A DNA stretch of 64,000 nt from Promethearchaeota archaeon. GTDB taxonomy: Archaea; Asgardarchaeota; Lokiarchaeia; Sigyniarchaeales; SOKP01. Positions 3,192-32,127 of this stretch are shown here, in pieces; position 1 is the stretch's first letter, and every line of letters begins with the position of its first letter. The position numbers and the translations under genes are program-made. The stretch lies in the NCBI GenBank assembly GCA_019057795.1, contig JAHLWS010000069.1:32001-96000 (forward strand), read 5' to 3'. The notes under the pieces are model-generated. The model had not been told where the DNA came from and ran no database searches. It saw only the letters and a list, made by a program, of their open reading frames with translations.

Positions 3192-3316
3192 ATAAAATCA
3201 GTATTTAATTTATGGTTTGTTATCATAGTAAAATGATTAGAATTAATTTAAAATTTCTACTTTTATTAATATTCTAACACTATTTGTAACAAAAACTACG
3301 AGAAAAAGCGTGTAAA

Positions 3317-4801: not shown

Positions 4802-5171
4802 CTACCCGAAATTTTAATACCAGTTTTAATTATAGCTATACTCAATATATTTTATAGAATATATGGAAGAACAGAAATTAATATTTTATTCTTATTTCAA
4901 TAAAATGAAAATATTTGCCGATTATTATTTAATTAGGCGGTTATATTTAAGTATGAAATTTATCAAAAAAAAATTAAAAATGATAATAGGTTCTTAATGT
5001 CTTTAATTTAAAATTTATAATTTTAACTCGTAATAAAAATCCTTCTATGAAATTAAAGATTTGACCATTTGAATTTTAACCTTAATGGATACTTAAAATT
5101 CGAAAAAATTACTTCATAAAATTTAAAATTAAAGAATAATCTATATATATAAGATAATTTTTAAGGAAACG

Positions 5172-6608
5172 ATGAAAAATATGACTTCAAATATATTTGG
5201 TACTTCAGGCATAAGAAAGGTGTTCCAAAATTATAGCGAGACAGATCTCATGTTTACGCCGCAAATGGCTTTAGATGTGGGATTGGCGTTGGGCACATAT
5301 TTAAAAGGTAAAGGAATCGTAGTTATCGGGAAGGATATTAGAACTTCTGCTTTACCAATAGAATATTCATTAATCTCAGGGATTTTAAGTACGGGATGTA
5401 ATGTGAAAACATTAGGAATTGTAACTACGCCCACATTAGCAATGTCTTTACGATATCTAAAAGGGGATGCTGGTGTTGAAATCACAGCCTCTCATAATAC
5501 TCCCGAATACATCGGGCTCAAGTTATGGAATCCTTCAGGTATAGGGTATTCCCACGAGCAAGAAGATGAAATTTCGCGAATATATGACGAGAAGGATTTT
5601 CTTGATATCAAATGGGATCAAATTGGAAGAGTTACTCAGGTTAATGATATTAACGATAAACACATTTCAGATATAATGGATCGTATAGCATTTGATGGGA
5701 GTAAACTTAATGTTATAGTTGACCCTGGAAACGGAGCAGGATGTGAAATTGTCCCAAGGTTATTAAGTGCTTACAATGTAAATATTATTACCATAAATGC
5801 GCAGATGGATGGTAAATTCCCTGGAAGAAATTCAGAACCTAGCGAAAAAAATTTGATTCAGATTTCCAAATTTCTGAAAATATCAACACAAGAAGATATT
5901 GGAATAGCGCTAGACGGGGATGCTGATAGAGTTATTTTCTTAGATGAAACTGGTGAGATTGTCGATCCAGTTAGGTTATTAGCCCTCTTGGCGAAATATT
6001 ATATACAAAATAATAAAAATAAAATTTCATTGAATGATATGAAAATATCTACTCCAGTAAACTCATCTAGCTTAATTGAAGATGTGTTACAACCGCTAGG
6101 TTGCGAAGTAATAAGAACTGAGGTCGGAGATATTCAAGTAGCTCAAGCTTTACAGAAGAATGGGGGATTCTTAGGTGGAGAAACTTCAGGTACTTATATT
6201 TGGCCCAGCTTCCATTTAGGTCCAGATTCAATAGTCACAATTGGATTAGTATTGCAAATGATAGTCAAAACAGGAAAAAATTTAATAGAATTATTGAAAG
6301 AAATACCAAAATATCCCTACTACCGTAAACAATTTCAGCTTATAAAAGACATTCCCTTTACTGATGAGATAAACCAAAAAATTATTACTGAGATGAAAGA
6401 GAGCTTCGAATCTATGGGAAAAGTTTTAAAATCTATTAATAAAATGGACGGTTGTCGATTCGATTACGATAATGGATGGATTTTAATAAGACGTTCAGGA
6501 ACTAGCCCATATTTAAGAATTTCTGGTGAATCTAGTGTCGATATAAATCAATCAATTGAAATGAATAAAATAGCAGAAGAAAAAATGAAGAAATTAAATT
6601 TAATATAA
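5172..6608 (+). CDS. glmM: Phosphoglucosamine mutase / alpha-D-phosphohexomutase
   Basis: FGTSGIR, catalytic TASHN, metal loop DGDADR, GGETSG and RRSGTSP. It lies beside glmS and glmU. Confidence 0.85.
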   Translation: MKNMTSNIFGTSGIRKVFQNYSETDLMFTPQMALDVGLALGTYLKGKGIVVIGKDIRTSALPIEYSLISGILSTGCNVKTLGIVTTPTLAMSLRYLKGDAGVEITASHNTPEYIGLKLWNPSGIGYSHEQEDEISRIYDEKDFLDIKWDQIGRVTQVNDINDKHISDIMDRIAFDGSKLNVIVDPGNGAGCEIVPRLLSAYNVNIITINAQMDGKFPGRNSEPSEKNLIQISKFLKISTQEDIGIALDGDADRVIFLDETGEIVDPVRLLALLAKYYIQNNKNKISLNDMKISTPVNSSSLIEDVLQPLGCEVIRTEVGDIQVAQALQKNGGFLGGETSGTYIWPSFHLGPDSIVTIGLVLQMIVKTGKNLIELLKEIPKYPYYRKQFQLIKDIPFTDEINQKIITEMKESFESMGKVLKSINKMDGCRFDYDNGWILIRRSGTSPYLRISGESSVDINQSIEMNKIAEEKMKKLNLI

Positions 6609-12653: not shown

Positions 12654-15404
12654 TTATTCTATCTTCTTAGGAAGGGAGAAATAAAACGTGCTTCCCATGT
12701 TCTTCCCTTCTGATTCCATCCAAATTTTCCCCCCGTGTGATTCCACAATTCTCTTTGAAATAAATAGCCCTAAACCAGTACCATCAATTTCTAAATCAAG
12801 ACCTTGACCATAACGTTCTATTTTTCCAAATTGTTGAAAAAGTTTCTTTTTCTGATCTTCATTAAAGCCAATTCCGTTATCTTTTACTGAAACAACAACA
12901 AGCTCTTCTTTTAATTCTGTCTTTATTTCAATTTTCCCCCTGGGTGGAGTGTACTTAATCGCATTAGATAGTAAATTAGAAAGAACATCGTGAATCTCCT
13001 CTTTTTCAATATTTGCGTACAACTGGTCATGTATATCTAATTTAATTGAGTGCTTTCTTTTTTCTGCCATAGGTTCTAATTCAAGCACGCAAAAATTTAT
13101 GAGAAATGATAAGTCTTCCCTTTGCTTACTCGGTCTTAATTCGGGTGATTCTAATCTAGAAGATTTTAAAAGGTTGTTAATAATATTCTGAAGTCTATCG
13201 CAACCAGCATTTATCTCTCGTAGTTTTGAAATAATAGATGAATCTAATTGATCTTCATGTAAAGATAATATGAGTTCAGAATATCCCTTAATTGAAATGA
13301 GGGGGGTTTTTAATTCATGAGAAGATCTTCTAAGAAACTCAGATTTTAGTTTACTTACTTCTCTTAAATTTTCCTCAACATGCTTTCTCTCAGTAATATC
13401 CATGCCATATATGTTTACATAATTAGTACCTCTTATGGGTGTAAAAGTAAAGGAGTAAAAATTCTCACCAAATCTCACTTCTGATTCAGTAATTTGATTG
13501 CTTTCAAACGAATGTTTCACGTTTTCCTTTATGATATTTGGGATTTGATTATAATCTATTATGTTAAATAATTTTTGACCTGCATAGTTTATATAAATAA
13601 CTTCATCTCTATTCACTCTTAAAACGGGATAGGGATTCTCTGATGGAAATTGAGCTAAATCAAAGATTTCTTTCTCCTTTTTCTTGCGCTCGGTGATATC
13701 TGTAAATATAATTCCAAGATTATCTCCTACTTTGAACGCTCTTATCGAGAGTTGAGAGGAAGATTGTCCATCTATTCTATTAAAAATACCATCTTCTGTA
13801 GAAAACGGTTTTCCAGTTTTAATGACTTCAATATATTTGTCATATCTCCCAGTTTCTTTAAGATTTGGTACGATATCTAAGATGTTTTTTCCGATTATTT
13901 CCTCTTTAGTCATCCCTATAGTTTGTAGCGTTACCTTGTTCACATCAATATAATTCAATTGTGCATCATAAAGGACGAACCCATCGGTAGCTGAATTCAT
14001 GAAACTCGCTAATCGCTGTTCTGATTCTTTTAATTTTTGTTCTGATATCTTTTGTTTGGTAACATCTCTAAAACTCCATACACGTCCCTTAATCTCTCCT
14101 GCGTGAATTAGTGGACTAGATAAGCGATCAAAAATCCTTCCATCTTTAAATAAGAGAGTATCAAAACCTTCGCTAGCAGATCTATAAAGTTGATTTACTT
14201 TTGAAAGAAAAGCTTCTGGGTCTGTTAATTGACTTAATACATAATCTAATAATTTTTGATCATCTCTTTTTTCGATTAAATCCTGTGGAATACGCCACAT
14301 GTCCGCAAATTTAGAATTAGTGTGCGTTACTTGACCATATTCATCAACAACAAGAATCCCATCTGCAGTAGATTCTAGGGTTGACCTCAAAATTTCTTCG
14401 GATTCTCTTAATTTTTGTTCTGATATTATTTTTTCGGTAACTTCTCTAGCGAAACCGTAAAATCCGATCTTATTTCCTTCAGAATCGTGTATTAAATCGA
14501 TAAATCCTTCCAAAAATACTTGTTTTCCCCTATTCGTTAACCCTTTAGCTCTATTAGTATGAGGAAGGGGAATTCCTGATTTATAAAGTTGGTTAAACAT
14601 TTTAAATAACTCTTTAGATGTCTTTTCGTCGAAAATCAAGCGAAAATTCTTTCCTAATAGTTCTTCCTTTGAATATCCTACTGTTTTACACCAATAATCA
14701 TTCACGAAGGTAAAATTTCCCTTAAGATCGAGAGCATAATATCCTTCCATCATGTTTTCGAGAAGCTCTCTATATTTTTTCTCGGATTTTTTTAATTTGT
14801 GTTTGAATTTAGTCTGATCTGAGCCTTTGAATATCTCCCAGGTGCCCTCTCGCCTAAAAAGAGCACATTGATGATTGCGAACAGCATCCAAAATCTTAAA
14901 AGATCCGCATATTTCAAGGGAATAGGCGCAAACAGCAATTATATTATAGGAAGTGATTATATTACTTATTTCTTCCTCAAAATCGTTGAAAACTTTCCAA
15001 TCTTTATCTTCTTGCCAAAAAGTATTTCCTGTTAATCTTAATCCATTAAATCCATTATCTAACGCACCATTATATTTATCTACCCATCGATTGAGAACGC
15101 TTTGCAGGTCAAATTCGTTATTTTCCTGATACAATTCTGTATATGGAATAATCTCTATCTGATTTTTCTGTACATACGTATCAAACTTAGGTATAGCCAT
15201 TCTCATAGCCTTCTCGGCATCTTTTTCATTTAACGGTTCAGAAGTTATCCACATGCAATATTCATTATTCTCTAAACCTGCTTTAAAATAGGACACTAAA
15301 ATCTCGAGAAGATCGCCTTGTGTTTGATAAAACATACAGAAATGAGTGCCCCATGGTATAGTGCCTAAAACTTCAATCCCAGATTTTCTTTCTGATGATT
15401 TCAT
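12654..15404 (-). CDS. MEDS + multi-PAS sensor histidine kinase
   Basis: N-terminal MEDS domain (WGTHFCMFY, GLRLTG), PAS/PAC repeats ending DITE, H-box SHELKTPL, N-box NLLSNAIKY and G-boxes DNGIG and GTGLGL. Confidence 0.92.
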   Translation of the reverse strand: MKSSERKSGIEVLGTIPWGTHFCMFYQTQGDLLEILVSYFKAGLENNEYCMWITSEPLNEKDAEKAMRMAIPKFDTYVQKNQIEIIPYTELYQENNEFDLQSVLNRWVDKYNGALDNGFNGLRLTGNTFWQEDKDWKVFNDFEEEISNIITSYNIIAVCAYSLEICGSFKILDAVRNHQCALFRREGTWEIFKGSDQTKFKHKLKKSEKKYRELLENMMEGYYALDLKGNFTFVNDYWCKTVGYSKEELLGKNFRLIFDEKTSKELFKMFNQLYKSGIPLPHTNRAKGLTNRGKQVFLEGFIDLIHDSEGNKIGFYGFAREVTEKIISEQKLRESEEILRSTLESTADGILVVDEYGQVTHTNSKFADMWRIPQDLIEKRDDQKLLDYVLSQLTDPEAFLSKVNQLYRSASEGFDTLLFKDGRIFDRLSSPLIHAGEIKGRVWSFRDVTKQKISEQKLKESEQRLASFMNSATDGFVLYDAQLNYIDVNKVTLQTIGMTKEEIIGKNILDIVPNLKETGRYDKYIEVIKTGKPFSTEDGIFNRIDGQSSSQLSIRAFKVGDNLGIIFTDITERKKKEKEIFDLAQFPSENPYPVLRVNRDEVIYINYAGQKLFNIIDYNQIPNIIKENVKHSFESNQITESEVRFGENFYSFTFTPIRGTNYVNIYGMDITERKHVEENLREVSKLKSEFLRRSSHELKTPLISIKGYSELILSLHEDQLDSSIISKLREINAGCDRLQNIINNLLKSSRLESPELRPSKQREDLSFLINFCVLELEPMAEKRKHSIKLDIHDQLYANIEKEEIHDVLSNLLSNAIKYTPPRGKIEIKTELKEELVVVSVKDNGIGFNEDQKKKLFQQFGKIERYGQGLDLEIDGTGLGLFISKRIVESHGGKIWMESEGKNMGSTFYFSLPKKIE

Positions 15405-15677
15405 ATATTATTTTACCCATTTAATATTAACTTTTGGAAATAATTCTACTATTTGAGCCTATTAAATATCTTTTATTTTTTATTATTTAGAACTAGTTTT
15501 TTTATATAATTTTATTGTTTTAAAAAAACCTTAAAACAACTACGAAAAATTTATATTTTACGCTCAACTAAAAATTAAATAAATTTATAAAATTCAAAAG
15601 TCTTTTTAAATAAAGAATTTACACCTAATAATACCAGCTTTCATATAAGAGATTTGTTAACGTCTATTGAAAGCTTT

Positions 15678-17168
15678 TCACGCTTTTTCTACACGAAATA
15701 TATGGCTATTCCAACCCTCTAATTCGATATATAATCCATTTTCACGAAGATCTTTTCCTTTATAAATATACTCGTTCCTTGTAAGCAGATCTGTAAACTT
15801 CCAGTTAAATAGTCCAAAATCTATATCTTCTATTATTAAATGCGCTTTGGAAGCAATTAAACTATAATTGACAACAATTAATAGTCGATCCTTATCTGTC
15901 CACCACTGATACGAAATAATATTATTGAAAGAGTTATCACTTGAACTGATAGGTTTAACTTTACATAAAGACCATTTTGCATTATCAAACTCTCTTCCGG
16001 GAATAATTTCCAACAAATTGTCATAGAATTCCATCAGAGCTAAGTCATCTTCTTCTGTCGTCGCCCTTCCTAATTGAACAGGTAATTTTATTTCGTATCC
16101 TCGTGTTTGCCCTTCAAAAATCAATCGAGCGCCAGGTAGTGTTGATGTAATAACAACAGCAGCTTTTGAAGCTTCAGTTCCGAACACCGTTATAGCTCTT
16201 GGTTCATCGTGATTTTCAATAAAGCGGAGCAATTTTCTTTGGTAATCCAAATCTGCTTTAAGATGTTCGTTTACTCTCTGAGCATTATCATTAGCTAAGC
16301 GTTCGTATAGTTTCTTATCATAACAATAATCAAATCCTTGCTGCATCAATTCCCATTCCATATCCCAATACACTTCAGCTATAAACTTAAAATCGGGGAA
16401 TTCATTTTTTACAGCAACAATAATTTCTTCCCAAAATTCTTTTTCAAGAGCTGGACCTACTTTTACCTCCCATGTGCGGTTAAAAACGCTATTAGTCATT
16501 AACATTGCCATATCACATCTAACACCATCACATTGTTGGGCGATCGAAAGTAGCGTGTGAATGGCTTTTGAACGAGCTTCAGGCGAAAACGCATTGATTT
16601 GCACGGTGTCGGTCCATGCAGGAAAATTGGGATCGCGACCATGAGCATAAACAATATCTCCTAAAGAGAAAAAGTCGTATGGTTTAGCTATTAAATCATC
16701 TATAGTTCCTTTTATAAAAACATCTGATTTTTCAAGCGTCCATAGATGGTCTACTGAAACATGGTTGGGAACATAATCTAAAAGTAGCAATATTCCATGG
16801 TCAGCTAATTCTTTGCGGAAGAAATCTAAACCATCTGAACCCCCAAGGTGAGAACTAACGTGATAATAATATACTGAATATGGCGAACCAATAACATCAT
16901 CGGTATTAAAATAATGTAACGCCTTACGATATTCTTCTTGTAAACCTTCGTGGTTAATCGCAATTTCTCTTCCTATAGGACTTCTTTCCCATACTCCCAT
17001 TAACCAAATTGCATCATAAGGAGTTAATTCTTGGTCAATTAATTCAACAGGTAATGTATCTAACTTAATTGAATGGCCATATATCTCAGATAAATTGTTT
17101 AACCATGGCCACGTGTTAATTTCGTAAATTTTAGGGTGTTTAGGCCATATAATCTTTTTTATTGACAT
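15678..17168 (-). CDS. GH13 alpha-amylase family glycoside hydrolase
   Basis: DYVPNH, nucleophile GVRCDMA, acid/base AEVYW and ENHDE. Confidence 0.9.
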   Translation of the reverse strand: MSIKKIIWPKHPKIYEINTWPWLNNLSEIYGHSIKLDTLPVELIDQELTPYDAIWLMGVWERSPIGREIAINHEGLQEEYRKALHYFNTDDVIGSPYSVYYYHVSSHLGGSDGLDFFRKELADHGILLLLDYVPNHVSVDHLWTLEKSDVFIKGTIDDLIAKPYDFFSLGDIVYAHGRDPNFPAWTDTVQINAFSPEARSKAIHTLLSIAQQCDGVRCDMAMLMTNSVFNRTWEVKVGPALEKEFWEEIIVAVKNEFPDFKFIAEVYWDMEWELMQQGFDYCYDKKLYERLANDNAQRVNEHLKADLDYQRKLLRFIENHDEPRAITVFGTEASKAAVVITSTLPGARLIFEGQTRGYEIKLPVQLGRATTEEDDLALMEFYDNLLEIIPGREFDNAKWSLCKVKPISSSDNSFNNIISYQWWTDKDRLLIVVNYSLIASKAHLIIEDIDFGLFNWKFTDLLTRNEYIYKGKDLRENGLYIELEGWNSHIFRVEKA

Positions 17169-18025: not shown

Positions 18026-19384
18026 CTAATACATATTTTTCAATCTTTCCATAAAAGGTTCTACACTTTTTTTGACTCCGTTTACATTTTCGCCTATTTT
18101 TTTGAAATTAATAACTATTGATGGTATATTTAATTCCGTTTTCATTTTATCCTTTAATGTATCGTATGTTTTTGATATTGAAGGGCACCCAAATACCTGG
18201 TTGAAGATTAAACCATCTATGTTCATTCTTTTTGCTGCTGCTAAGTAGGAATTCGTCATATTTTCTCTGTTGCATCCAATTCCTTTTGTTGATGCGTTCA
18301 ATAGAAAACGAGAGTAATCTTCAATGGGGTCGGAATTTTTTGATAAAGGGATTTCTTCCAATAAACCTAGTAAGTCCCAATCAGCATAAATTATCCTTCC
18401 ACCCAATTTATAAATAATTTCGTGTACTTCTGGTTCCCACCCTTGGTACATTGGGGCAAATAACACCCTTGGCATGTGAGAAACATCCATTCCTATACCT
18501 TTTTTGATCCTCTCTCTCATTTCTTTAACTAATTGACTCATATTATTTAAGTATCTTTGAGCGTTAGAATTATAATCTTGAAATGTTATTGTTAGAAGCG
18601 CTAGAATTTCCGCAAAGGATGCAGGATTACAAGGATAGAAATTTGAAGTACTGATCTCATAAAGGATTGTTTTATAAAATCGCTTTACCTGGTTTCCTAT
18701 TCGGAATTGTTTTTGTAAGCTACTATCTGTGACAAAATTTCCTGTTATACCCTCTAAATCACTGATCCCCCTTTTTACACTGTTTATTATTTGTTCTAGT
18801 GCCTTATTTTCATTTTCTAGATTTTTAGGAGGAACCTCAATCGTTATTTGATTAGGGACTGTTGTTTTTAACGATTCAGAAAACTTATTCCATTCACCAC
18901 AACGCATAGCAAAGTTAAGATTAGCGTCTAAATTTTTGCCCTTTGATAAATGCATTCCATAAAGAGCGTTAATTCCATAACATAATTCAGAGGGAACGCC
19001 ATTATTAACACCTAATTCGTACATTTCATTATATTTACTATGAATCGAGGTAATAACATCTTCAAGAATTTTATCGACTATTTTTAATATATCAAATTGA
19101 CGAGCGAAATCTAGAAATTTTGATGTTAAACTCCAACCTAATACACTAGTGGCGGAATTTAACATTGCTAAGTACTTATTAACTTCAAACGATTCCATTC
19201 GAATTGGAAAAACTGGAATCCCTCCAACGGCAAAAGCTAAATCTGGGAAACCTAAGGCAACTGAAATTAATTTTTTCTTTTCTTTAAACTTTTTCTTTTT
19301 TAGATACTCTCTACCTGTTAAAAAATTATAAGCCATTTTAAGAACAGACGTGAAACTTACGACATCGTCAGCGTATATACTCGT
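18026..19384 (-). CDS. 2-hydroxyacyl-CoA dehydratase subunit (HgdA/B-like), paralogue 2; probable ACG start at 19384 (first ATG at 19336)
   Basis: Clear paralogue of 25275..26630 with the three Cys ligand motifs ELCYG, MRCGE and FGCPS. The 16 codons upstream of the ATG align with the paralogue's N-terminus. Confidence 0.8.
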   Translation of the reverse strand, partial: TSIYADDVVSFTSVLKMAYNFLTGREYLKKKKFKEKKKLISVALGFPDLAFAVGGIPVFPIRMESFEVNKYLAMLNSATSVLGWSLTSKFLDFARQFDILKIVDKILEDVITSIHSKYNEMYELGVNNGVPSELCYGINALYGMHLSKGKNLDANLNFAMRCGEWNKFSESLKTTVPNQITIEVPPKNLENENKALEQIINSVKRGISDLEGITGNFVTDSSLQKQFRIGNQVKRFYKTILYEISTSNFYPCNPASFAEILALLTITFQDYNSNAQRYLNNMSQLVKEMRERIKKGIGMDVSHMPRVLFAPMYQGWEPEVHEIIYKLGGRIIYADWDLLGLLEEIPLSKNSDPIEDYSRFLLNASTKGIGCNRENMTNSYLAAAKRMNIDGLIFNQVFGCPSISKTYDTLKDKMKTELNIPSIVINFKKIGENVNGVKKSVEPFMERLKNMY

Positions 19385-19486
19385 TTTAAAACCAACTCTA
19401 GCTGCTATTATAAAATAAGAATTTTCTACAACTATAATTTAAAAATAGTCATCTAATTGTAATAAAATTTATGAGGTAAAGTATAA

Positions 19487-19503
19487 GGGTTTATGATTTT
19501 ATT
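19487..19503. repeat. 17-bp direct repeat A, copy 1 (GGGTTTATGATTTTATT)
   Basis: Identical to 21934..21950. Confidence 0.85.
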
Positions 19504-19630: not shown

Positions 19631-19777
19631 TACTCTTAGAAGTTTTATTCTAATACTCGAATATTATCTCGGATTTGAAAATATTTATATTTCATGGTTT
19701 ACTTCTTGAAATTCGAATTTTTCCGCAAACATAAGAGTTAAGCAAGATTTAATTGTATATAAAATGTATTATAAACC

Positions 19778-19797
19778 AAGAAAATGAAAATATGAAA
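19778..19797. repeat. 20-bp direct repeat B, copy 1 (AAGAAAATGAAAATATGAAA)
   Basis: Identical to 21980..21999. Confidence 0.8.
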
Positions 19798-19810: not shown

Positions 19811-20797
19811 ATGACTAAGGAAAAAATAAAAATTTGCGTACTTGAGAAAAAACGAGGAAATTTTTCAATACAAGAGAAATTTGCTAAAAACGAAAATATT
19901 ATCGATACAACTAATCAAGAAGTAGAACATCATTTAAGTGCTTTAAATGAAGCGGGTTATGATGTAAAAATATTAAAATGGAATGACAATATAATTTATG
20001 ATTTAAAAAGTCTTGACATTGATATCGTATTTAATATATCCAGCATTGTTGAAACAGCTATTTTAGAAGAATTAGAGATACCTTATGTAGGGTCTGATGT
20101 TTTTGGATGCGTTATAGCAACCGATAAGGTTCTTACTAAAGACTTGTGGTTTAAAAAAGGATTACCAACATCACCTTATATTTTAGCAAGATCAAAAGAG
20201 GATTGTGAAATTTTTAAGAAAAACAAGCCATTTGATTATCCTTTATTTATAAAACCCTCTCAAGGGAGAGGAAGTTCTGGAATCGATGAATCCTCACTTA
20301 TCTGTTCATATAACGAATTAATTAAAGGAGTTGAAAAAAGATTAAACACAATAAATCAACCTGTTCTTATTGAAAAATTTTTAAAAGGTAGGGAAATAAC
20401 ATGTGGAATTATTGGTAATGGAAATCAGATTAAAGCCTTACCTTTATTAGAAATAATACACAAGGAAAAGGAAAAATTCTTGACATTTAATAAAAAAGAG
20501 TTAGATGACGATCAATTCCAATGCCCTGCAAAATTAACTCCGAAACAGTCTAAAGAATTACAGAAATTAGCTATTTCAGCATTTCAAGCGATAAATCTTA
20601 GAGATTATGGTCGTGTAGACATGATCTTATCAGAAGAAGGTCCTTTTTTATTAGAAATAAATTGTTTTGCAGGATTAATGTGTACACCAAAAGATAAACC
20701 TCATAGTTACATGGGCTTTATGGCAATTGCAGAAAACAAAAAAAGTAGTGAATTCTTAGATGAAATTATAAAAGAAGCATTAAAAAGAATTGGATAA
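19811..20797 (+). CDS. ATP-grasp ligase, D-Ala-D-Ala ligase-like
   Basis: IPYVGS, DK, IKPSQGRGSSG, EKFLKGREITCG, GRVD and LEINCFAGL. It lacks the Ddl N-terminal GGxSxE motif and the YDYxAKY loop. Confidence 0.85.
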   Translation: MTKEKIKICVLEKKRGNFSIQEKFAKNENIIDTTNQEVEHHLSALNEAGYDVKILKWNDNIIYDLKSLDIDIVFNISSIVETAILEELEIPYVGSDVFGCVIATDKVLTKDLWFKKGLPTSPYILARSKEDCEIFKKNKPFDYPLFIKPSQGRGSSGIDESSLICSYNELIKGVEKRLNTINQPVLIEKFLKGREITCGIIGNGNQIKALPLLEIIHKEKEKFLTFNKKELDDDQFQCPAKLTPKQSKELQKLAISAFQAINLRDYGRVDMILSEEGPFLLEINCFAGLMCTPKDKPHSYMGFMAIAENKKSSEFLDEIIKEALKRIG

Positions 20798-20839
20798 CTT
20801 TCGTTCAAACTAAAAACAAATTGTATTATGTGAATTAAA

Positions 20840-21925
20840 ATGCCAATACTTGAAATAAATTTGAGAAAAATTAGACATAACGCAAAATTATTAAAGAATC
20901 TTTTAACTCAGCGAAATGTATCTATTATTGGAATTACAAAACTTGTCTTAGGAAACCCTACTATTGCAATGACGTTGGTTCAAGGAGGAATAGAGTATTT
21001 AGGAGATTCACGAATTAACAATATTATTAAAATGAAAAAAAATAATATTAGAGCTCAATTTGTTTTAATTCGTATTCCAAGCATTACTGAAATTCCTCTT
21101 GTTGTTAAATACGCAAATTATAGCCTAAATTCAGAATTAAAGACCATAAGAATGCTTTCAAATGAAGCCGTTAAACAAAAAAAGATACATAATATAATTC
21201 TAATGGTAGATATGGGAGATTTAAGAGAAGGAATAAATATATTCAATATTGAATTTTTTGTCGAAGAGATTTTAAAACTAAAAAATATAAATTTAAGTGG
21301 AATTGGTACAAATTTCAAATGTTTTGGTGGTATCATCCCGACAGATGAAAATATGAATGAATTTTCAAAATTAGTCTTTAGGATCAAGGATAAATTTGAA
21401 TTGGAATTAGAATTTGTTTCAGGAGGAAATTCTGCAAATTTTAACTGGTTTAAATCGTGTAAAAACATTGGTGAAATAAATAATTTTAGAATTGGGGAAG
21501 CCATGTTTCTAGGAAAAGAAACGATAAATTATGAACCAATTCCAAATCTATATACAGACGCTTTTAAGTTAATAACAGAGATTGTTGAGTTAAAACAAAG
21601 ATCTGTAATCCCCAAAGGGATTATTGTATCAAATGCATTTGGGGAACGTGTCCAAACTTACCATAAAAAAATTAACAACGGTAAAAAAAGCGATATAATT
21701 AGAACACAAGCACTTTTAAATATAGGTAGACAAGATATTGCAGTAAAAGGATTAAATCCGAAAGAAAGTATTAATATTCTTGGAGCTTCAAGCGACTACT
21801 TAGTTGTAGATATAAGAGATAATCAATTTCAGATTGGACAAAAATTGCATTTTGATTTAAATTATGAAGCTCTTTTAAGAGCAATGACTAGTCCCTATAT
21901 CCATAAGAAATTTATCGATATTTAA
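20840..21925 (+). CDS. PLP fold-type III amino-acid racemase, ornithine racemase (Orr)/YhfX-like
   Basis: GITK (PLP Lys), GDSR, SLNSE, MVDMGDLREG, GTNFKCFGG, SGGNS, RIGEA, GRQD and GASSD. Confidence 0.85.
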   Translation: MPILEINLRKIRHNAKLLKNLLTQRNVSIIGITKLVLGNPTIAMTLVQGGIEYLGDSRINNIIKMKKNNIRAQFVLIRIPSITEIPLVVKYANYSLNSELKTIRMLSNEAVKQKKIHNIILMVDMGDLREGINIFNIEFFVEEILKLKNINLSGIGTNFKCFGGIIPTDENMNEFSKLVFRIKDKFELELEFVSGGNSANFNWFKSCKNIGEINNFRIGEAMFLGKETINYEPIPNLYTDAFKLITEIVELKQRSVIPKGIIVSNAFGERVQTYHKKINNGKKSDIIRTQALLNIGRQDIAVKGLNPKESINILGASSDYLVVDIRDNQFQIGQKLHFDLNYEALLRAMTSPYIHKKFIDI

Positions 21926-21933
21926 ATTTACAT

Positions 21934-21999
21934 GGGTTTATGATTTTATTCTGAATGGTAACGAAACACATTTTAGAAGAAGAAAATGAAAATATGAAA
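21934..21999. repeat. Direct repeats A (21934..21950) and B (21980..21999), copy 2
   Basis: Exact matches to 19487..19503 and 19778..19797, in the same order and orientation. Confidence 0.8.
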
Positions 22000-22335
22000 T
22001 TTATTTTTATTACAGTAAGGATAATTTTTAGTTTATTAAAAAAAGTTCTAAAAAACATCTACATAATTGTAGAATTAAAATTTGCCTCTTAATCTATATA
22101 AATGACGCAAAATTTTAAATGTAATAATTGATATAATAAGATAGGAAGAATTTTGCATTGAAACTTAAAACGGTATTAATTATCTAAATATTAGAATATA
22201 TTTTTGTATCCAATAAATTAGGGATATAATTAGAGCAACTGGTTATTCACTGTTATTATTCTATCGAATTTTAATAATCACTACTCTGCAATCCAGTAAG
22301 TTTCTTTAATGCTTATTTCAAATATTGTTTGAAGG

Positions 22336-24090
22336 GTGTTTTATTCAATAATGATGACTAACTCTTATTTAGAGAAAAAAAAAAATAGAAGAATTTTAAC
22401 AGCATGTATAGGACAATGCGTGCATGTAGCAGGTACATATAATTTCATTCAAATTTCAAAACAGTTAGGTTATAATAATATATTTTTAGGACCTGCTACC
22501 CCTATTTCAATTGTTATCGATCAAATTAAAAAGTATGACCCTAACATTGTAGGGCTAAGTTATCGTTTAACGGCAGACACTGTTAGACCTTTACTAAATG
22601 AATTTTTTAAAAATTTTATAAAATTAGAGAAAAAACCAAAAAAATTATTTTTTGCTGGAACACCTGAAGTAGTTGAGATTGCAAGAAAATATGAAGGGTT
22701 CGATGAATATTTTGTTGGAGGGGAATCAAAATTTGAATTAATTTCTATCTTGAGAAATGAGAAAGTAAAATCAGAAAGTAAAACAGAAATCCCTATGGAC
22801 ATTATTTCTCGAATACAATGGAAGAAACCTTATCCTGTAATTAGAGCGCACTTTGGATTACCTAATTTCAATGAAACAATAGAAGGAATAAAAAAAATTG
22901 CTAAAGCTAAAGTCTTAGATGTTATTTCAATTGCGCCCGATCAAAATACGCAAGCAAATTATTTCCACCCTGAAAATCAAGATAAAGAATTATCTGGAGC
23001 GGGCGGGGTTCCTTTGCGCACTCAGCAAGATTTCGAAAAGCTCCATCAGGCAAGATTAACCGGAAACTATCCGATGTTAAGGGTATATGCTGGAACACGC
23101 GATTTCATTAAATTAGGAAAATTGTATCGAGATACAATTCAAAATGCTTGGGCAGCAATTCCTATTTTTTGGTTTAATCAAATGGATAGTAGGGGGCCTT
23201 TAACTTTAAAAGAATCGATTAAACAGCATCTAAACGCAATAAAGTGGCACGGAAAGCACAATATTCCCGTTGAAGTAAACGATCCACATCATTGGAGCCT
23301 TCGAGACGCTCCTGATGCTATAGCTGTTGCTGATATGTATTTATGTGGAATAATAGCCAAAAAATTAGGCGTCAAAAATTTTATAGCACAATATATGTTT
23401 AATACACCTCCATCAAGTTCACTTGATATGGACTTAGCAAAAATTCTCGCTAAAGATGAGTTACTTCAAACGCTAGCCAATGAGAACTTTACGATAATTA
23501 AGCAAGTTCGAACGGGAATAACAAGTTTCCCATTAGATTTGGATAAAGCAAAAGGACAGCTTGCTACAGCGACATTTGTTCAATTAGCTATTAGACCAGA
23601 CATTGTTCATGTAGTTAGTTCTTCTGAAGCTAGTCATGCAGCTCGTCCAGAAAATGTAATAGAAAGTTGTAAAATAGTGGATCAAGTCATAGATAAAGTT
23701 TATTCCTGTAAAATTAATATTATAGATAAAAAAATTGAGGAAAGGAAAGAAGAATTAATAAGACAAGCCAAATGGATAGTTAATTTAATACCTCATCTAA
23801 CAAAAAATGAAGAAGAAACGATAAGTCCATACACCAATTATGAAGTTTTAAGTCGACTCGTAAAATATGGTATATTTGATGCCCCACATTTAAAAAACAA
23901 TAAATTTGCGTTGGGTAAAATTAAAACAAAAGTAATTAACGGTGCTTGTTATTCGTGGAATGAATCTCAGCAAAAAATTTACGATGAAATTGAAAGAATA
24001 AAAGACATTATCTTTAATAGCCCATTTAAAAATTTTTCTGATTCATTACAACAAAAAGAAAAATCCATCACAAAGGTGATGGATGAATGA
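22336..24090 (+). CDS. Cobalamin-binding domain protein with a large C-terminal catalytic (probably TIM-barrel) domain; B12 enzyme of unknown function
   Basis: Base-off/His-on B12 domain: GQCVHVAG (DxHxxG variant), FLG, VGLSYRL and FAG. There is no radical-SAM CxxxCxxC. Likely start is ATG 22351. Confidence 0.8.
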   Translation: MFYSIMMTNSYLEKKKNRRILTACIGQCVHVAGTYNFIQISKQLGYNNIFLGPATPISIVIDQIKKYDPNIVGLSYRLTADTVRPLLNEFFKNFIKLEKKPKKLFFAGTPEVVEIARKYEGFDEYFVGGESKFELISILRNEKVKSESKTEIPMDIISRIQWKKPYPVIRAHFGLPNFNETIEGIKKIAKAKVLDVISIAPDQNTQANYFHPENQDKELSGAGGVPLRTQQDFEKLHQARLTGNYPMLRVYAGTRDFIKLGKLYRDTIQNAWAAIPIFWFNQMDSRGPLTLKESIKQHLNAIKWHGKHNIPVEVNDPHHWSLRDAPDAIAVADMYLCGIIAKKLGVKNFIAQYMFNTPPSSSLDMDLAKILAKDELLQTLANENFTIIKQVRTGITSFPLDLDKAKGQLATATFVQLAIRPDIVHVVSSSEASHAARPENVIESCKIVDQVIDKVYSCKINIIDKKIEERKEELIRQAKWIVNLIPHLTKNEEETISPYTNYEVLSRLVKYGIFDAPHLKNNKFALGKIKTKVINGACYSWNESQQKIYDEIERIKDIIFNSPFKNFSDSLQQKEKSITKVMDE

Positions 24091-25193
24091 GGTTCTGCGT
24101 TATTGGAGCAGGAAATGGTGGCCGAGCGTTTGCGGCATATTTATCATCAGAAGGATATCCTGTAAATCTATATAATCGCTCATATACCAGAATTTATGAC
24201 ATCAAAAAGAAAGGAGGAATAAAAGCAAAAGGGAAGTTAAAAGGCTTTTTCCCAATTGATCTGATTACACAAAATCTAAATTTGGCAGTTAAGAATGTAG
24301 ATGTTATTTTAATAGTAACTCCTGCTTCAGCACATAAAAGTATTGCAAAGAACATTGCACATTTTTTAACAAACGATCAGATAATATTGTTGAATCCAGG
24401 TAGAATTTTTGGAGCTGTAGAGTTTAGAAGTATAATAGAAAAGGAAAGAGGGAATCTCCCTATTTTTATTGCTGAAACCCAAACATTACTTTTTACATCA
24501 AGACAATTGAAAAAAAATGAAGTTCAAATTCTTACAATTAAGGATTCTGTTAGTTTTTCTGCTTTTCCAGAGAAGCATACGTTTTTCATTAGTGATACAT
24601 TGAGAGATGTTTTTCCCCAAATGAATCCTATTGATAATTATCTGCAAGTTACATTAAATAACATGGGGATGTTATTGCATCCAACTCTCTCATTATTGAA
24701 TGCTAGTGCTATGGATTATGGAAGAAAGTTCAATTTTTATGCACAAGGGGCATCTACACATACTTGTGAAATTCTTGAGGCTCTTCAAATGGAATTCAGA
24801 AAGATTTTTGAAAAGTTAAATTTAAAGCAAATAAATTTTTGTGAATGGGTGGAGAAATCTTATGGATTTAAAGCAAACAATATCTATAATGCTATTCAAA
24901 AAATAGAGGCATATAAAAATATTGTTGCTCCAAAAGAATTAATAACTAGATATTTCACTGAGGATGTTCCAACTGGACTTGTACCTATGGCGTCATTAGG
25001 AGAATTCTTAGAAATTTCTACACCAATAATTGATTCTATAATAAATTTATCTTCGATTTTATGTGGAATTGATTTTAGAAAAGAGGGAAGAAGCATTATG
25101 AACTTAAATTTAGCTAGCCATATAACTAAACAAATGAAAGGAGAAGATATGTTGGGAATACTAGAAAGTCAAAAAACACAAATCGATGCTTAA
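24087..25193 (+). CDS. NAD/NADP opine (octopine/nopaline) dehydrogenase family protein
   Basis: Rossmann motif VIGAGNGG, LNPGR, AETQTL, NMGMLLHP and RYFTEDVPTGLVP. It overlaps the B12 gene by ATGA. Confidence 0.9.
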   Translation: MRFCVIGAGNGGRAFAAYLSSEGYPVNLYNRSYTRIYDIKKKGGIKAKGKLKGFFPIDLITQNLNLAVKNVDVILIVTPASAHKSIAKNIAHFLTNDQIILLNPGRIFGAVEFRSIIEKERGNLPIFIAETQTLLFTSRQLKKNEVQILTIKDSVSFSAFPEKHTFFISDTLRDVFPQMNPIDNYLQVTLNNMGMLLHPTLSLLNASAMDYGRKFNFYAQGASTHTCEILEALQMEFRKIFEKLNLKQINFCEWVEKSYGFKANNIYNAIQKIEAYKNIVAPKELITRYFTEDVPTGLVPMASLGEFLEISTPIIDSIINLSSILCGIDFRKEGRSIMNLNLASHITKQMKGEDMLGILESQKTQIDA

Positions 25194-25274: not shown

Positions 25275-26630
25275 TTACTTAAACATTTCCATGAATGCAC
25301 CGAGCCTTGTCTTCATTTGTTCGATGTTCTCTCCAATTTTATTAAAAGTAATTGCAGTTGTTGGTATCTCAAGCTCGCGTCTTACTTTCTCTCTCAGCAT
25401 TGTATAACAATTTGAAATAGAATGACATCCAAACAATTGAAAAAATATAAGACCATCGGCATTTAATTTTTTTGCCACTCTCAAATATGAGTCAGTTAAC
25501 GTGTCGTTATCACACCCAATCCCTGATACTGTTGCATTTAAAAGAAATCGAGCGTATTCTTCAACAGGATTTAAATGATTAGCCACGGGAATTTCCTCTG
25601 AGAATTTTATTACTTCCCAGTCAGCATAAATCGCTCTCCCGCCTAGTTCATATATAATATCGTGGGTTTTTGGTTCCCATCCTCCGAATATTGGCGTTAC
25701 AAAAATACGCGGCATTTTAGACACATCCATTCCAATTCCCTTTCTTATTCTTTCCCGCATTTCGTCTACGAGTGAAATTAAATTATCCCTATATCGTATC
25801 GAATTAGAATTATAGTCTTGAAATGTAAGGCTTAATAACGCCAGAATTTCACTAAATGTTGCTGGATTACACGGATAAAAATCAGAAGCACTAATATCGT
25901 AGATTATTGTTTTATAAGATTTTTTTACTTGATTACTAATTTTAAAATGCTCTCTCAATTGATTATCCGTTATTGTGTTGCCAGTTAAATTCTCCAATTC
26001 TCTTATGGCGTTCGATACATTATCAGTTATAATTTCCAAAGCATTTCCAATATTTCTGGGAGGAATATCAACCCATATTTGCTTTGGGTCTTGATTGATT
26101 ATTTTTAAGGATTCCATATATTTATTATACGCGCTACATCGAATTGTAACGTTGAGACATGCGTCTAAATTACGACCTTTGGAAATATGCGCACCAACTA
26201 AACTTTTCAACCCGTAACAGAAGTCACTTGAAATTCCATTCTCAATTCCAAGATCATACATTTCGTTGTATTTTTTGTTAATCGTGTCAATTACATCCTC
26301 AATAATTCCGTCAACAATTTTACTGATTTCAGATATTCCAAGGTTCTTAACAAAACTTAAGAAGCTAGAAACATTTTTCCAGCCAAAAATACTAGACGCG
26401 GAGCCTAAGTACGCGAGGTATTTACTAATTTCAAAAGTGTGCATCCTTATCGGAAACACTGGTACAGCACCTGCCGCGAAAGCTAGATCTGAAAATGCTA
26501 AGGATACTCCAACTAGCTTTTTTTTCTCTCGGAACTTTTTCCTTTTTAGATACTCTCTGCCTGTTAAAAGATTATAAGCCATTTTTAATACAGAACTAAA
26601 AGTTATTATTTCCTCAGCAATTAAACTCAT
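25275..26630 (-). CDS. 2-hydroxyacyl-CoA dehydratase subunit (HgdA/B-like), paralogue 1
   Basis: Cys motifs DFCYG, IRCSA and DGLIFFQLFGCH; in an operon with a second subunit and an activase. Confidence 0.8.
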   Translation of the reverse strand: MSLIAEEIITFSSVLKMAYNLLTGREYLKRKKFREKKKLVGVSLAFSDLAFAAGAVPVFPIRMHTFEISKYLAYLGSASSIFGWKNVSSFLSFVKNLGISEISKIVDGIIEDVIDTINKKYNEMYDLGIENGISSDFCYGLKSLVGAHISKGRNLDACLNVTIRCSAYNKYMESLKIINQDPKQIWVDIPPRNIGNALEIITDNVSNAIRELENLTGNTITDNQLREHFKISNQVKKSYKTIIYDISASDFYPCNPATFSEILALLSLTFQDYNSNSIRYRDNLISLVDEMRERIRKGIGMDVSKMPRIFVTPIFGGWEPKTHDIIYELGGRAIYADWEVIKFSEEIPVANHLNPVEEYARFLLNATVSGIGCDNDTLTDSYLRVAKKLNADGLIFFQLFGCHSISNCYTMLREKVRRELEIPTTAITFNKIGENIEQMKTRLGAFMEMFK

Positions 26631-27766
26631 TTCATCATCTCCAAATACGCTTCTATTCTTGTTGAGAGCTGCCCTCGATTAGCTCGAGAATAGTCTCGCT
26701 CTAAATTCAATACTTGTATTCCTTTTTCTTGTAACTCATTTTTCAAGAAAGAAGACATTAACGATATGTGGTCGCAAAATTTAATAATATGATTGAAAAC
26801 GCCTAATTTTTTACCAGTTTTTTTTGTATAGTTCTTAGAATAATTATCAATCAAAGAAACTTTTTGTTGCAAGAAGTTAGGTACTGAATGGTCTCCACAC
26901 GTATTATTTTTAAATCTCAGCACCAATAAATCTAAAGGATTTTTGTTTGAATTTATCGAGTCATCATCTATAACTTGTGAATAATAGTGATTTCCAATCC
27001 ATGTATCGAAATAAACAATATTTCCCCCTCCTTCTTCGATTAAATCAATTAGGTTATCATTAATGAAGATAGAACATCCTGTAAATAAAATATCTTTAGA
27101 TAAACCAAGGTTTTGAGGTGGATTGTTTTTTACTTCTTCAATGTACTTTTCTAAATCAGGTAGGAATGTTGGACCATATAATATTGCTTTTTGAATTATA
27201 TTTAATTTTTCTGAGCCCAAAATCTCTAAATCATTAACTTGCGATATTTTTTTTTTAAAATCATTATACTTCTTAATACTCTCAAATAATTTTTCGTCAG
27301 AAATTTTTTTACCTATAATATCTTCAAGCTTCTCCTTTAAATTTTGTAGCTCTATCTTGAAATATTTTAAACTACTTTCATTAGTCATATATGGGACATA
27401 AAAATTTAAACGAGAGATATTGAAATATTTAGTTATTATTTCTGAAGCACAAATATCTGATACGCAGTGGTTTGAAACAATAAAATAATCCACCAAATCT
27501 AAAAATCTGTAGTTATTTGGTTTAGTAGAAAATAATCCAATACATGATTGAGCAAATGCACATGTAGATGGAGGTAAAAAATCGTGACTAGCTTCCATTA
27601 ACTCGTCATCCCCTCCAAACATCATCCTTAAAGGAAAGAAACCCGCTGCATCTATCAACTCTTCGGGGATATTGTCGTGAGCTAAAAAAGCAACGATTTT
27701 AACACCTTCTTGCTTTTTTTCTTTAAGAAATAACGAAAACTCTGGGAGAAGAATGGGATCGGTCAT
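26627..27766 (-). CDS. 2-hydroxyacyl-CoA dehydratase / benzoyl-CoA reductase-type subunit
   Basis: IPEELIDAAGFFP, STCAF, NHCVSD, KFCD, LERDY and GQLSTRIEAYLEM. Confidence 0.85.
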   Translation of the reverse strand: MTDPILLPEFSLFLKEKKQEGVKIVAFLAHDNIPEELIDAAGFFPLRMMFGGDDELMEASHDFLPPSTCAFAQSCIGLFSTKPNNYRFLDLVDYFIVSNHCVSDICASEIITKYFNISRLNFYVPYMTNESSLKYFKIELQNLKEKLEDIIGKKISDEKLFESIKKYNDFKKKISQVNDLEILGSEKLNIIQKAILYGPTFLPDLEKYIEEVKNNPPQNLGLSKDILFTGCSIFINDNLIDLIEEGGGNIVYFDTWIGNHYYSQVIDDDSINSNKNPLDLLVLRFKNNTCGDHSVPNFLQQKVSLIDNYSKNYTKKTGKKLGVFNHIIKFCDHISLMSSFLKNELQEKGIQVLNLERDYSRANRGQLSTRIEAYLEMMK

Positions 27767-27880: not shown

Positions 27881-28660
27881 CTAATTAGAATTGTTTTCTT
27901 GAGCTATTAAAGCGGCACCAATAGCTCCCGTGAGTTGAGGAAATTCGGGTGTTTCGATGCCATATCCAAGTTCATCTTCTAAAAATTTTTTTACAGCAGG
28001 GTTTTTGGCGACTCCACCACAGAAAATAAGTTTAGGTCCTACTCCAATACGTTTTGCCATTCCGGCAACTCTTCTCGCAATTGATTTATGTATGCCGCTT
28101 GCGATCTCTTCTTTAGAAGCCCCTCTCGCGAATAAACTTATTACTTCGCTTTCTGCGAAAACTGTACATGTTGAACTTATTGAAGCCGATTTGTTAGATC
28201 GTAAAGCTAAATCTCCAAATTGATCAATAGGAACTTCCAACGCGTGAGCCATGACTTCCAAAAACCGGCCCGTTCCTGCTGCGCATTTGTCATTCATTTG
28301 AAAGTCAATAACATTTCCAGTTTTTGCAGACATTACAATTGCTTTACTATCTTGACCCCCAATATCTATTACGGAATTAGCATCTGGAAAGAAATATTGC
28401 ACCCCCCTAGCGTGAGCTGTAATTTCAGTCACTCGATCGTCTGCAAAGTCTACTGTATTTCTTCCGTAACCGGTGCTCATAATGTGTACATCTTCCTTCT
28501 TCAAACTGTGTTTATTTAATATTTCATTAAATAAATTATGACCAATTCTTTTGAAATCATATGTGGATCTTTCTGTTCGGTGATCAATTAACTTCCTATC
28601 GTTAATAAGCACTATCTTTGTTGCCAAAGAACCAATATCTATACCAATAAAATTCTTCAA
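27881..28660 (-). CDS. hgdC: CoA-substrate-specific enzyme activase (HgdC/BadF/BcrA-D family ASKHA ATPase, 4Fe-4S)
   Basis: GIDIGS, TGYGR, EITAHARG, DIGGQDSK, MNDKCAAGTGRFLE, STCTVFAESE and GGVAKN. Confidence 0.9.
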   Translation of the reverse strand: MKNFIGIDIGSLATKIVLINDRKLIDHRTERSTYDFKRIGHNLFNEILNKHSLKKEDVHIMSTGYGRNTVDFADDRVTEITAHARGVQYFFPDANSVIDIGGQDSKAIVMSAKTGNVIDFQMNDKCAAGTGRFLEVMAHALEVPIDQFGDLALRSNKSASISSTCTVFAESEVISLFARGASKEEIASGIHKSIARRVAGMAKRIGVGPKLIFCGGVAKNPAVKKFLEDELGYGIETPEFPQLTGAIGAALIAQENNSN

Positions 28661-31065: not shown

Positions 31066-32127
31066 ACGAGTGAAATTATTCCGTCTTATGCTTATACATA
31101 TATTAAAATCGATTATTTAAAACTATTAATAATTGATGATGACACTTTACTAAAACTTAAAAGAATCTACGATATTGATGACTTCATGGAATCTATTAGA
31201 CCTTACTATCCTAATTTAGATTTCAAAGAAAATACTATTGAAGATATTGAAGTAGCTCTTAATAATAATTATATTAAGCTAATTGGTAAAATTTTACATT
31301 ATTCCCCCCAAAACATGAGAATATTCTTAAGAAATTATCTCATGAAATTTGAAATACAAAATCTCAAACAAATAATCATCAGTTTAATTTTAGGAATTAA
31401 TCTAGAAGAAAAAAGAAAATACATTAATTTTTTAGTTGAAGAATATTTAGATAACACGGAATTCATTGAAGAATTGCTTAAATTTACTTCTTTAGACGAA
31501 ATACAATTATTTCTTAAAAGAACTAAATACAATATAGCTATTAGAGAAGGGATTCTTTACTTTAAGAAAAATAAAGAAATTTTTATTCTGGAAGCTTTTT
31601 TAGATCAATTATATTATAAGCAACTTAATGCTCAACTGGAACGTTTAAATAAAAAAGAGAAAACAATGATATCGTTGTTTGTGAAATATAAAACTGAAAT
31701 TTATAATATAAATGTGATTTATAGGGGAATAAAAAATAAAATTGAAGGAAAATTATTATCTCAATTTCTTGTAAATAATTATTTATTCCTAAATGAAAGT
31801 AAATTAGAACAATTGTTAAATCTTGATAATGTTGATGAATTTATATCAATTATTAAAGAATATTTGAAGAATATTAAGGAAACAAAACCATTTTTTATCA
31901 AGCTAAAAATTAATCAAAAACACTTAATTAGGTCAATTGAACAATTTTATATAACTTATTATTTTAAGAAATTTAAGATTAAAATTGACGATATTGATTT
32001 TTTCACCATTTACAAAATTTTAGAAATACTTATAAAAAAAGGGGGAGAAATCCGATTTATTATATTACCCCAGGTAATTAAGATCCTTCACTATAAGTTT
32101 AAAGCGTTAAAAACGCAGAAATTTTAA
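31066..32127 (+). CDS. atpC: A/V-type ATPase subunit C (d); probable ACG start
   Basis: N-terminal YAY motif, FEIQNLK, LEAFLDQLYY and EIYNINVIYRG; operon position fits. The ORF-track TTG start at 30982 lies inside atpK. Confidence 0.8.
   Translation, partial: TSEIIPSYAYTYIKIDYLKLLIIDDDTLLKLKRIYDIDDFMESIRPYYPNLDFKENTIEDIEVALNNNYIKLIGKILHYSPQNMRIFLRNYLMKFEIQNLKQIIISLILGINLEEKRKYINFLVEEYLDNTEFIEELLKFTSLDEIQLFLKRTKYNIAIREGILYFKKNKEIFILEAFLDQLYYKQLNAQLERLNKKEKTMISLFVKYKTEIYNINVIYRGIKNKIEGKLLSQFLVNNYLFLNESKLEQLLNLDNVDEFISIIKEYLKNIKETKPFFIKLKINQKHLIRSIEQFYITYYFKKFKIKIDDIDFFTIYKILEILIKKGGEIRFIILPQVIKILHYKFKALKTQKF

Follow-up and report, generated by a model that had tools for sequence, protein, structure and literature searches.

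A putative B12-dependent isomerase family partnered by an opine dehydrogenase, with an optional ligase-racemase cassette, in an Asgard archaeal locus and in bacteria

Do four neighbouring genes for enzymes of four families serve one pathway, or do they stand together by chance? This question is raised by a locus in an Asgard archaeal genome of the Promethearchaeota/Lokiarchaeia type (about 30% G+C), within a stretch of 64,000 nucleotides, hereafter the window, which comprises positions 32,001 to 96,000 of contig JAHLWS010000069.1 (GenBank assembly GCA_019057795.1). At positions 19811-25193 of the window lie the genes for an ATP-grasp ligase resembling Ddl, a pyridoxal phosphate (PLP)-dependent racemase resembling Orr, a B12 protein and an opine dehydrogenase (OpDH). 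A preliminary description had read them as a single undescribed pathway in which the racemase feeds the B12 enzyme. Its central claim holds, as the four families form operons elsewhere; the proposed order of the steps is unsupported. On balance, we favour the view that the four genes are one biosynthetic unit built from two conserved modules, one core and one accessory. The enzyme superfamilies are known, but the family of the B12 protein (hereafter the mutase), its obligate partnership with OpDH and the four-gene operon are not described, and we found no paper in the literature searched that links these families or describes the pathway.

The genes and their parts are arranged as follows (window coordinates).

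19811-20797, + strand: Ddl-like ATP-grasp ligase, 328 aa (PF07478, 104 bits)
20840-21925, + strand: Orr-like fold-type III PLP racemase, 361 aa (PF01168, 88 bits; NF040742, 370 bits)
21926-22335, no strand: non-coding gap of 410 bp between the racemase and B12 genes
22336-24090, + strand: B12 protein, putative single-chain isomerase of the adenosylcobalamin (AdoCbl) type and of a new family, 584 aa from GTG; likely start ATG at 22351
about 22384-22758, + strand: B12-binding domain of the B12 protein, ligand loop CVHVAG
about 22783-24015, + strand: GlmE/KamD-like TIM barrel of the B12 protein, from a structure model
24087-25193, + strand: CENDH-like OpDH, 368 aa (PF02317, 133 bits)
18026-19336 and 25275-26630, - strand: flanking genes, from the open reading frame (ORF) list

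The ORF list bears out that four co-oriented genes on the + strand lie between flanks on the - strand, as had been described, and Pfam and NCBIfam scans back the four enzyme labels. The proposed translational coupling of the B12 and OpDH genes, through an ATGA stop/start overlap, and the spacer of 42 nt between ligase and racemase can both be read directly in the sequence. The 410-bp gap between racemase and B12 gene had gone unmentioned, and because of it the four genes form two pairs, ligase-racemase and B12-OpDH. The B12-OpDH unit probably has its promoter in this gap, since relatives carry the B12-OpDH pair by itself, preceded by an upstream region of its own; a sigma-70 promoter scan returned fewer sites than in shuffled sequences, with a model that is not applicable to archaea. 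In RNA libraries of two studies, contigs match stretches of each of the four genes at 95-97% identity; they hint at expression, although a contig is no proof of transcription. None of these contigs lies over 21952-22359, a hole that is not evidence for two transcripts.

The B12 protein can be aligned over its first 140 residues with the domains that bind corrinoids, with the cobalt-ligand histidine matched, and in an alignment of relatives the His, the SYRL motif and the Gly positions of this domain are invariant. Pfam matches to PF02310 (B12-binding) and PF06368 are weak, the latter scoring 30 bits against a cut-off of 26.6 yet covering only 165 of 441 positions. With TIGR01503 (glutamate mutase E) the protein scores 21 bits against a cut-off of 390, which places it outside that family, and it fits no other curated sequence family. 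The remaining 430 residues were modelled as a TIM barrel (AlphaFold on 23 relatives, pLDDT 84). When the model was compared with solved structures, the top match of the barrel was GlmE (Z 29.5, root-mean-square deviation 3.3 over 377 residues), followed by KamD (Z 28.2) and OraE (Z 25.4), with the CoA-mutases (MCM) at Z about 19 and generic TIM barrels at about 14 and in no case above 19. Furthermore, three relatives (P0264, P0266 and P0268; relatives are cited by our own identifiers, L for loci, G for genomes and P for proteins) are fused to the MutL/GlmL domain PF13941, which from its Pfam description we take to be an accessory protein of glutamate mutase. Together, the B12 domain, the fold matches of the barrel and the MutL/GlmL-fused relatives support the view that the protein very probably represents a new family of His-on, AdoCbl-type radical isomerases acting on a free acid. 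Another relative, P0258, carries a Peptidase_M15-like domain, a weak match of 20.6 bits under the Pfam cut-off. Public records (PGAP) name the window protein "methionine synthase", and family members also appear as "cobalamin-binding protein" or hypothetical; the first of these names is a misannotation, backed by neither fold nor family evidence.

Among known systems, GlmS/GlmE (with GlmL) of Clostridium cochlearium shares with the window mutase a His-on B12 Rossmann domain and a TIM barrel of the same fold, has GlmL as a counterpart of the domain fused to some relatives, and presumably shares a substrate that is a free acid and not a CoA ester. In contrast to GlmS/GlmE, the window mutase has its B12 domain N-terminally in a single chain, shows an identity of only 16-17%, and is always paired with OpDH, not with methylaspartase. 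No canonical GlmE was found in its own genome, in the 201 Asgard genomes surveyed or in 5 bacterial genomes.

At 50% identity (E <= 1e-30) the mutase family comprises 249 clusters, with thousands of metagenomic members, and it falls into three clades that span archaea and many bacterial phyla. The Asgard proteins belong to clade I. Clade II is hosted by Bacteroidales, Flavobacteria, Bacillota, Planctomycetota, Chloroflexota, Thermotogota and others, and includes three cultured Bacillaceae and two archaeal metagenome-assembled genomes (MAGs); clade III is abundant in metagenomes and carries many bacterial labels. Clades II and III have the canonical ligand loop DxHxxG, which in the Asgard clade reads CVHVAG. 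As most relatives are bacterial, the route is not specifically archaeal, contrary to what had been suggested.

The partner of the mutase, OpDH, scores 133 bits with PF02317 against a cut-off of 30 and so belongs to the opine dehydrogenase family. It is a full-length homologue (260 bits) of N-(1-D-carboxyethyl)-L-norvaline dehydrogenase (CENDH, structure 1bg6), keeps the Rossmann motif, and shares with that enzyme the catalytic residues His202, Arg292 and Asp297 (1bg6 numbering), which are invariant in 22 relatives. As judged from its sequence, the window enzyme is thus a true opine dehydrogenase; CENDH, however, is a stand-alone enzyme, while the window OpDH is co-translated with the B12 isomerase. 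Of the 201 Asgard genomes sampled, 78 have the mutase and 80 have OpDH; both occur in the same families, and their genes are always neighbours. Their order varies with the family, mutase-OpDH in that of the window and OpDH-mutase in others, and stop and start usually overlap. Within the genus of the window 10 of 16 genomes carry this core pair, a patchy presence which indicates that mutase-OpDH is an accessory module. In bacteria, 46 of the 53 loci of clade II and 51 of the 76 of clade III have OpDH next to the mutase, and many of the loci without an adjacent OpDH end at contig ends. Structure prediction of a complex of the two proteins returned a score of 0.00, which is no evidence either way.

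Some core pairs show features of their own. A locus of the same genus (L028, on G104:C23) holds two mutase-OpDH copies 8 kb apart, at 3136-6005 and 13865-16707, with an AsnB-like gene between them. Some bacterial OpDHs bear an N-terminal PTS_EIIA_2 (PtsN-like) regulatory domain (L134:3020-4711 and L137:1922-3532). The core pair, in the order OpDH-mutase and without a ligase, occurs in three cultured alkaliphilic or halophilic Bacillaceae, Halolactibacillus alkaliphilus, Amphibacillus marinus and Natronobacillus azotifigens (L068, L074 and L078), where its neighbours are unrelated among themselves.

The second pair of the window consists of the ligase and the racemase. The ligase scores 150 bits with the best Ddl NCBIfam model, below its cut-off of 243, and alignments to 3lwb and 4zqi show that the Ddl catalytic residues K144, S150, K215, R255, D257, E270 and N272 are kept. 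In Ddl the omega-loop residue Tyr216 reads the second D-Ala; here Lys215-Tyr216 is Lys-Glu, and Glu occupies position 216 in all nine subfamily members aligned. The window ligase belongs to a distinct Ddl-like ATP-grasp subfamily. The racemase, at 370 bits with NF040742 (Orr) against a cut-off of 480, is a close relative of Orr below the family threshold, and one of its lysines aligns with the PLP-lysine of Alr. Of the 201 Asgard genomes, seven contain orthologues of the ligase (at least 57% identity), in every case immediately beside a racemase, and the same arrangement appears on several metagenomic contigs; all seven genomes also carry the B12-OpDH pair. In the other Asgard genomes the neighbours of the ligase-racemase pair are transporters and unrelated genes only. 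A racemase adjoining an ATP-grasp ligase recalls Ddl/Alr and VanC/VanT, with which the ATP, Mg and acyl-phosphate residues are shared. The pair in the window differs from them in the Glu for Tyr216, in an N-terminal ligase domain unrecognised by Pfam, in a racemase that is Orr-like and not Alr, and in hosts that include wall-less archaea.

The preliminary description had held that its reading would fall if the two pairs never occurred together elsewhere. They do occur together. In at least seven metagenomic loci (L104, L105, L108, L109, L111, L162 and L163) the genes follow one another on one strand in the order OpDH-mutase-ligase-racemase, abutting or overlapping, as in L108; the flanks of L108 and L163 look bacterial. 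Three further operons are incomplete, because of a contig end or because OpDH was not detected (L102, L107 and L117). The same ligase subfamily stands beside mutases of all three clades. In clade I, besides the window, it is directly upstream in L037 without a racemase and 3 kb upstream in L001; in clade II it is found in L101/L042, from a MAG labelled Methanosarcinales, where the ligase is 47.5% identical to that of the window; and in clade III it adjoins the mutase in 13 loci. A tblastn search of L037 and L001 for a racemase remnant came back empty, as did one for an Orr-like gene in the bacterial loci of clade II. In the ligase tree, the ligases beside mutases fall into three separate, well-supported clades.

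Elsewhere, the place of ligase and racemase is taken by an AsnB-like amidotransferase or another ATP-grasp enzyme. An AsnB-like gene lies 3' of the mutase in 12 clade III loci, adjoins the core pair in the Asgard loci L027, L028 and L030, and also stands beside the ligase-racemase pair in L103. Protein P0250 is a fusion of the mutase with a GSH-S/RimK-type ATP-grasp domain, encoded between an upstream OpDH gene and a downstream Peptidase_C26/GATase gene. In polysaccharide clusters of Bacteroidales two kinds of ATP-grasp enzyme accompany the core pair, and in L002 and L025 it is adjoined by GCS2, GGACT and Peptidase_C26 genes. MFS or EamA transporters often adjoin the genes. In L030 (15444-17378) a 644-aa fusion of an S-adenosylmethionine (SAM) methyltransferase with a Ddl_C-type ATP-grasp domain lies four genes downstream of a mutase-OpDH pair of the same genus. 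The ligases beside mutases in three clades, the full operons elsewhere, the P0250 fusion and the alternative amidating enzymes indicate that the juxtaposition of the two pairs is not accidental.

What would such a unit make? Most likely, its function is the biosynthesis of an amide-capped, opine-type amino-acid conjugate. The mutase would carry out a 1,2-rearrangement of a free, non-CoA amino or dicarboxylic acid, and could convert glutamate or an N-substituted glutamate into a skeleton of the 3-methylaspartate type. A glutamate-type substrate is our best guess, and a tentative one, suggested by GlmE as the top fold match and by glutamate-related neighbours (the GSH-S/RimK-type fusion, GCS2, GGACT, Peptidase_C26 and PGA_cap). 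OpDH would reductively condense an amino group and a 2-oxo acid with NAD(P)H to an opine, namely an N-(1-carboxyalkyl) amino acid, and its reduction may pull the reversible mutase step forward. The Orr-like racemase would provide a D-amino acid, and the ligase would form an amide bond between this D-amino acid and the opine carboxylate, or the reverse. CENDH-type enzymes make a D-configured opine moiety, which may explain the recruitment of a Ddl-type ligase. The racemase product could be a basic D-amino acid, as the Glu at the Tyr216 position and the likeness to Orr suggest, at somewhat less than even chances in our estimate. In other hosts, capping of the carboxylate would fall to an AsnB-like amidotransferase or to different ATP-grasp enzymes. 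The recurrent logic would be the formation of a carboxylate-rich secondary amine by mutase and OpDH, followed by ATP-dependent conversion of a carboxylate to an amide. The ATP-consuming ligases and the location in glycan biosynthesis clusters argue for synthesis over catabolism, and we regard the biosynthetic direction as probable. As most loci hold the mutase-OpDH pair alone, ligase and racemase are optional. In this scheme the racemase partners the ligase, not the B12 enzyme, and it is missing from most loci, so that the order of steps first proposed, with the racemase feeding the B12 enzyme, is not borne out.

The product might instead be bound to a surface glycan or protein as a decoration of the cell envelope and not be a free small molecule. 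In Rikenellaceae, Alistipes, other Bacteroidales and Clostridia, mutase and OpDH lie among glycosyltransferase, flippase, DegT, dTDP-sugar, sugar-transfer ATP-grasp and PGA_cap genes, as this alternative would have it. However, in the window and in 24 Asgard loci the immediate neighbours of the pair include neither a glycosyltransferase gene nor a sugar-nucleotide gene, and an MFS transporter is the commonest neighbour in Asgard loci and in many bacteria. We consider an envelope role of this kind improbable.

That the two pairs are neighbours by chance, a cassette having landed beside an unrelated B12-OpDH operon so that the modules act on unrelated substrates, has to be weighed against the history of the locus, in which direct repeats bracket the ligase-racemase cassette.

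19482-19503, + strand: direct repeat 1, left copy, with the exact 16-nt core GGGTTTATGATTTTAT at 19487-19502
19768-19797, + strand: direct repeat 2, left copy, with the exact 20-nt core AAGAAAATGAAAATATGAAA at 19778-19797, ending 14 nt before the ligase start
21929-21950 (repeat 1) and 21970-21999 (repeat 2), + strand: right copies, immediately 3' of the racemase stop

These exact repeats of 16 and 20 nt are found nowhere else in the window, and the two exact copies of the repeat 1 core compare with 0.26 expected by chance. A 33-codon ORF at 21992-22093 begins within the right copy of repeat 2, possibly by chance in AT-rich DNA. The same synteny without the cassette (amylase, a 190-aa gene, an HGD-D gene and mutase-OpDH) is seen in L029, of the same genus, and in L003, a Thor-labelled contig. 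In the ligase tree, the ligase of the window is nested in a clade of racemase-paired ligases, none of the others having a mutase as neighbour. From the repeats, the cassette-free synteny and this nesting it follows that the ligase-racemase cassette was inserted secondarily beside the B12-OpDH pair in this lineage. Among the sampled Asgard genomes the pairs are side by side only in this genome (G000) and in its 97%-identical relative G125.

The repeats, the nesting and the empty site in L029 are what a chance meeting would leave behind, and several further observations weigh against a single unit. The pairs are 410 bp apart here, the cassette being a recent insertion; they lie on different contigs in five Asgard genomes (G003, G133, G154, G157 and G160); and most loci hold the mutase-OpDH pair only. 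As regards the mutase itself, the Asgard clade has Cys for the Asp of DxHxxG, a search of this genome found neither a MutL/GlmL gene nor a PduO-type adenosyltransferase, and the kinship with GlmE is limited to the fold. When PDB sequences were searched with HMMER profiles, either of the entire protein or just of its barrel, the matches were confined to B12 domains or noise, and the barrel profile reached no solved mutase. On the other side, members of the ligase subfamily from three ligase clades stand by mutases of three clades, abutting four-gene operons and a mutase-ATP-grasp fusion exist, and seven of the seven Asgard genomes sampled with a ligase-racemase pair also have the B12-OpDH pair. 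A mere coincidence of neighbours is, in view of this, quite unlikely, and the reading of one unit built from two modules is retained.

A catabolic, Stickland-like route, in which the racemase would give D-ornithine or D-lysine to a B12 aminomutase and the dehydrogenase would deaminate the product oxidatively for energy, has the Orr-like character of the racemase in its favour, as well as a barrel nearly as close to KamD and OraE as to GlmE. Asgard archaea of this group ferment amino acids, and 2-hydroxyacyl-CoA-dehydratase-like genes flank the locus. As with KamDE/OraSE, a dehydrogenase would act next, and an Orr-like racemase lies nearby in the window. However, the window mutase differs from KamDE/OraSE in having neither the conserved lysine at +11 from the cobalt His, nor PF09043, nor a small S subunit. 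The PLP-lysine of KamE/OraE, which we take to lie 11 residues after the cobalt-ligand histidine, is absent at this position in every clade (Ser or Ala in clade I, an invariant Leu in clade III), and the B12 domain of the relatives contains no invariant Lys; consequently the analogy with Orr feeding a Stickland aminomutase, drawn in the preliminary description, does not fit. The B12 protein has no match to PF09043, and the sole PF09043 gene of the genome is a canonical KamD elsewhere, on contig C15. No OraS, OrtAB or Kdd-type genes are present in the locus, an ATP-consuming ligase would have no role, and the racemase is missing from most loci. Furthermore, the Bacteroidales genes sit in polysaccharide biosynthesis clusters and OpDH keeps opine-type catalytic residues. 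We see little chance that the locus works in this way. A pyrrolysine-like reading (PylBCD: mutase, ATP-grasp enzyme and dehydrogenase) was dropped, since the ligase is best read as Ddl-like, the dehydrogenase as a true OpDH, and a PylB-type radical-SAM gene is missing.

Two known biosynthetic systems resemble in part the conjugate synthesis that we favour. The CntKLM staphylopine clusters also combine a racemase with OpDH, with MFS/EamA-type exporters nearby. They differ in that the window racemase is PLP-dependent and partners a ligase, while CntKLM has no counterpart of the B12 isomerase or of the ATP-grasp ligase. A scan of the neighbouring genes, in the window as well as at related loci, found no nicotianamine-synthase-like CntL, the whole genome not having been searched, and with no CntL-type gene in the locus the staphylopine analogy first suggested loses its footing. 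In the synthesis of the osmolyte N-acetylglutaminylglutamine amide (NAGGN), the ATP-grasp ligase Ngg and the amidotransferase AsnO cap carboxylates of a glutamate-derived compound. Capping by an ATP-grasp ligase and an AsnB-like amidotransferase is a likeness of logic only; NAGGN synthesis, in contrast, is not known to include a mutase or OpDH.

Around the locus, three HGD-D/double-cubane-type dehydratase-like genes and a BcrAD/BadFG activator ATPase lie on the - strand (18026-19336, 25275-26630, 26627-27766 and 27881-28660). The same HGD-D/BcrAD-type genes adjoin the B12-OpDH pair in L002, L003, L025 and L029, which may be conserved synteny or a possible link.

The product of the pathway may serve as an osmolyte, a metallophore, a redox sink or an envelope decoration. 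Faint hints of a role in ion or nitrogen homeostasis come from PTS_EIIA_2 on some OpDHs and, in single loci, from TrkAH, Na+/H+ exchanger and CNNM neighbours. A more far-reaching proposal, which we hold to be doubtful, is that the B12 protein founds a new class of AdoCbl carbon-skeleton mutase, with OpDH as its obligate partner, that acts on an opine or on its precursor amino acid; its branched polycarboxylate secondary-amine product would be capped with a D-amino acid or an amide by many anaerobic sediment microbes, Asgard archaea included, and used as an osmolyte or a metal chelator.

To our knowledge, only about a dozen AdoCbl isomerases are known, each defining new radical chemistry. The family delimited here would be a further one, and its invariant OpDH partner and defined optional partners make the function of the mutase directly testable, with the three cultured Bacillaceae that carry the core pair as a genetic entry point. 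For the Asgard archaea, it would add an accessory B12-dependent pathway in about 40% of the genomes sampled.

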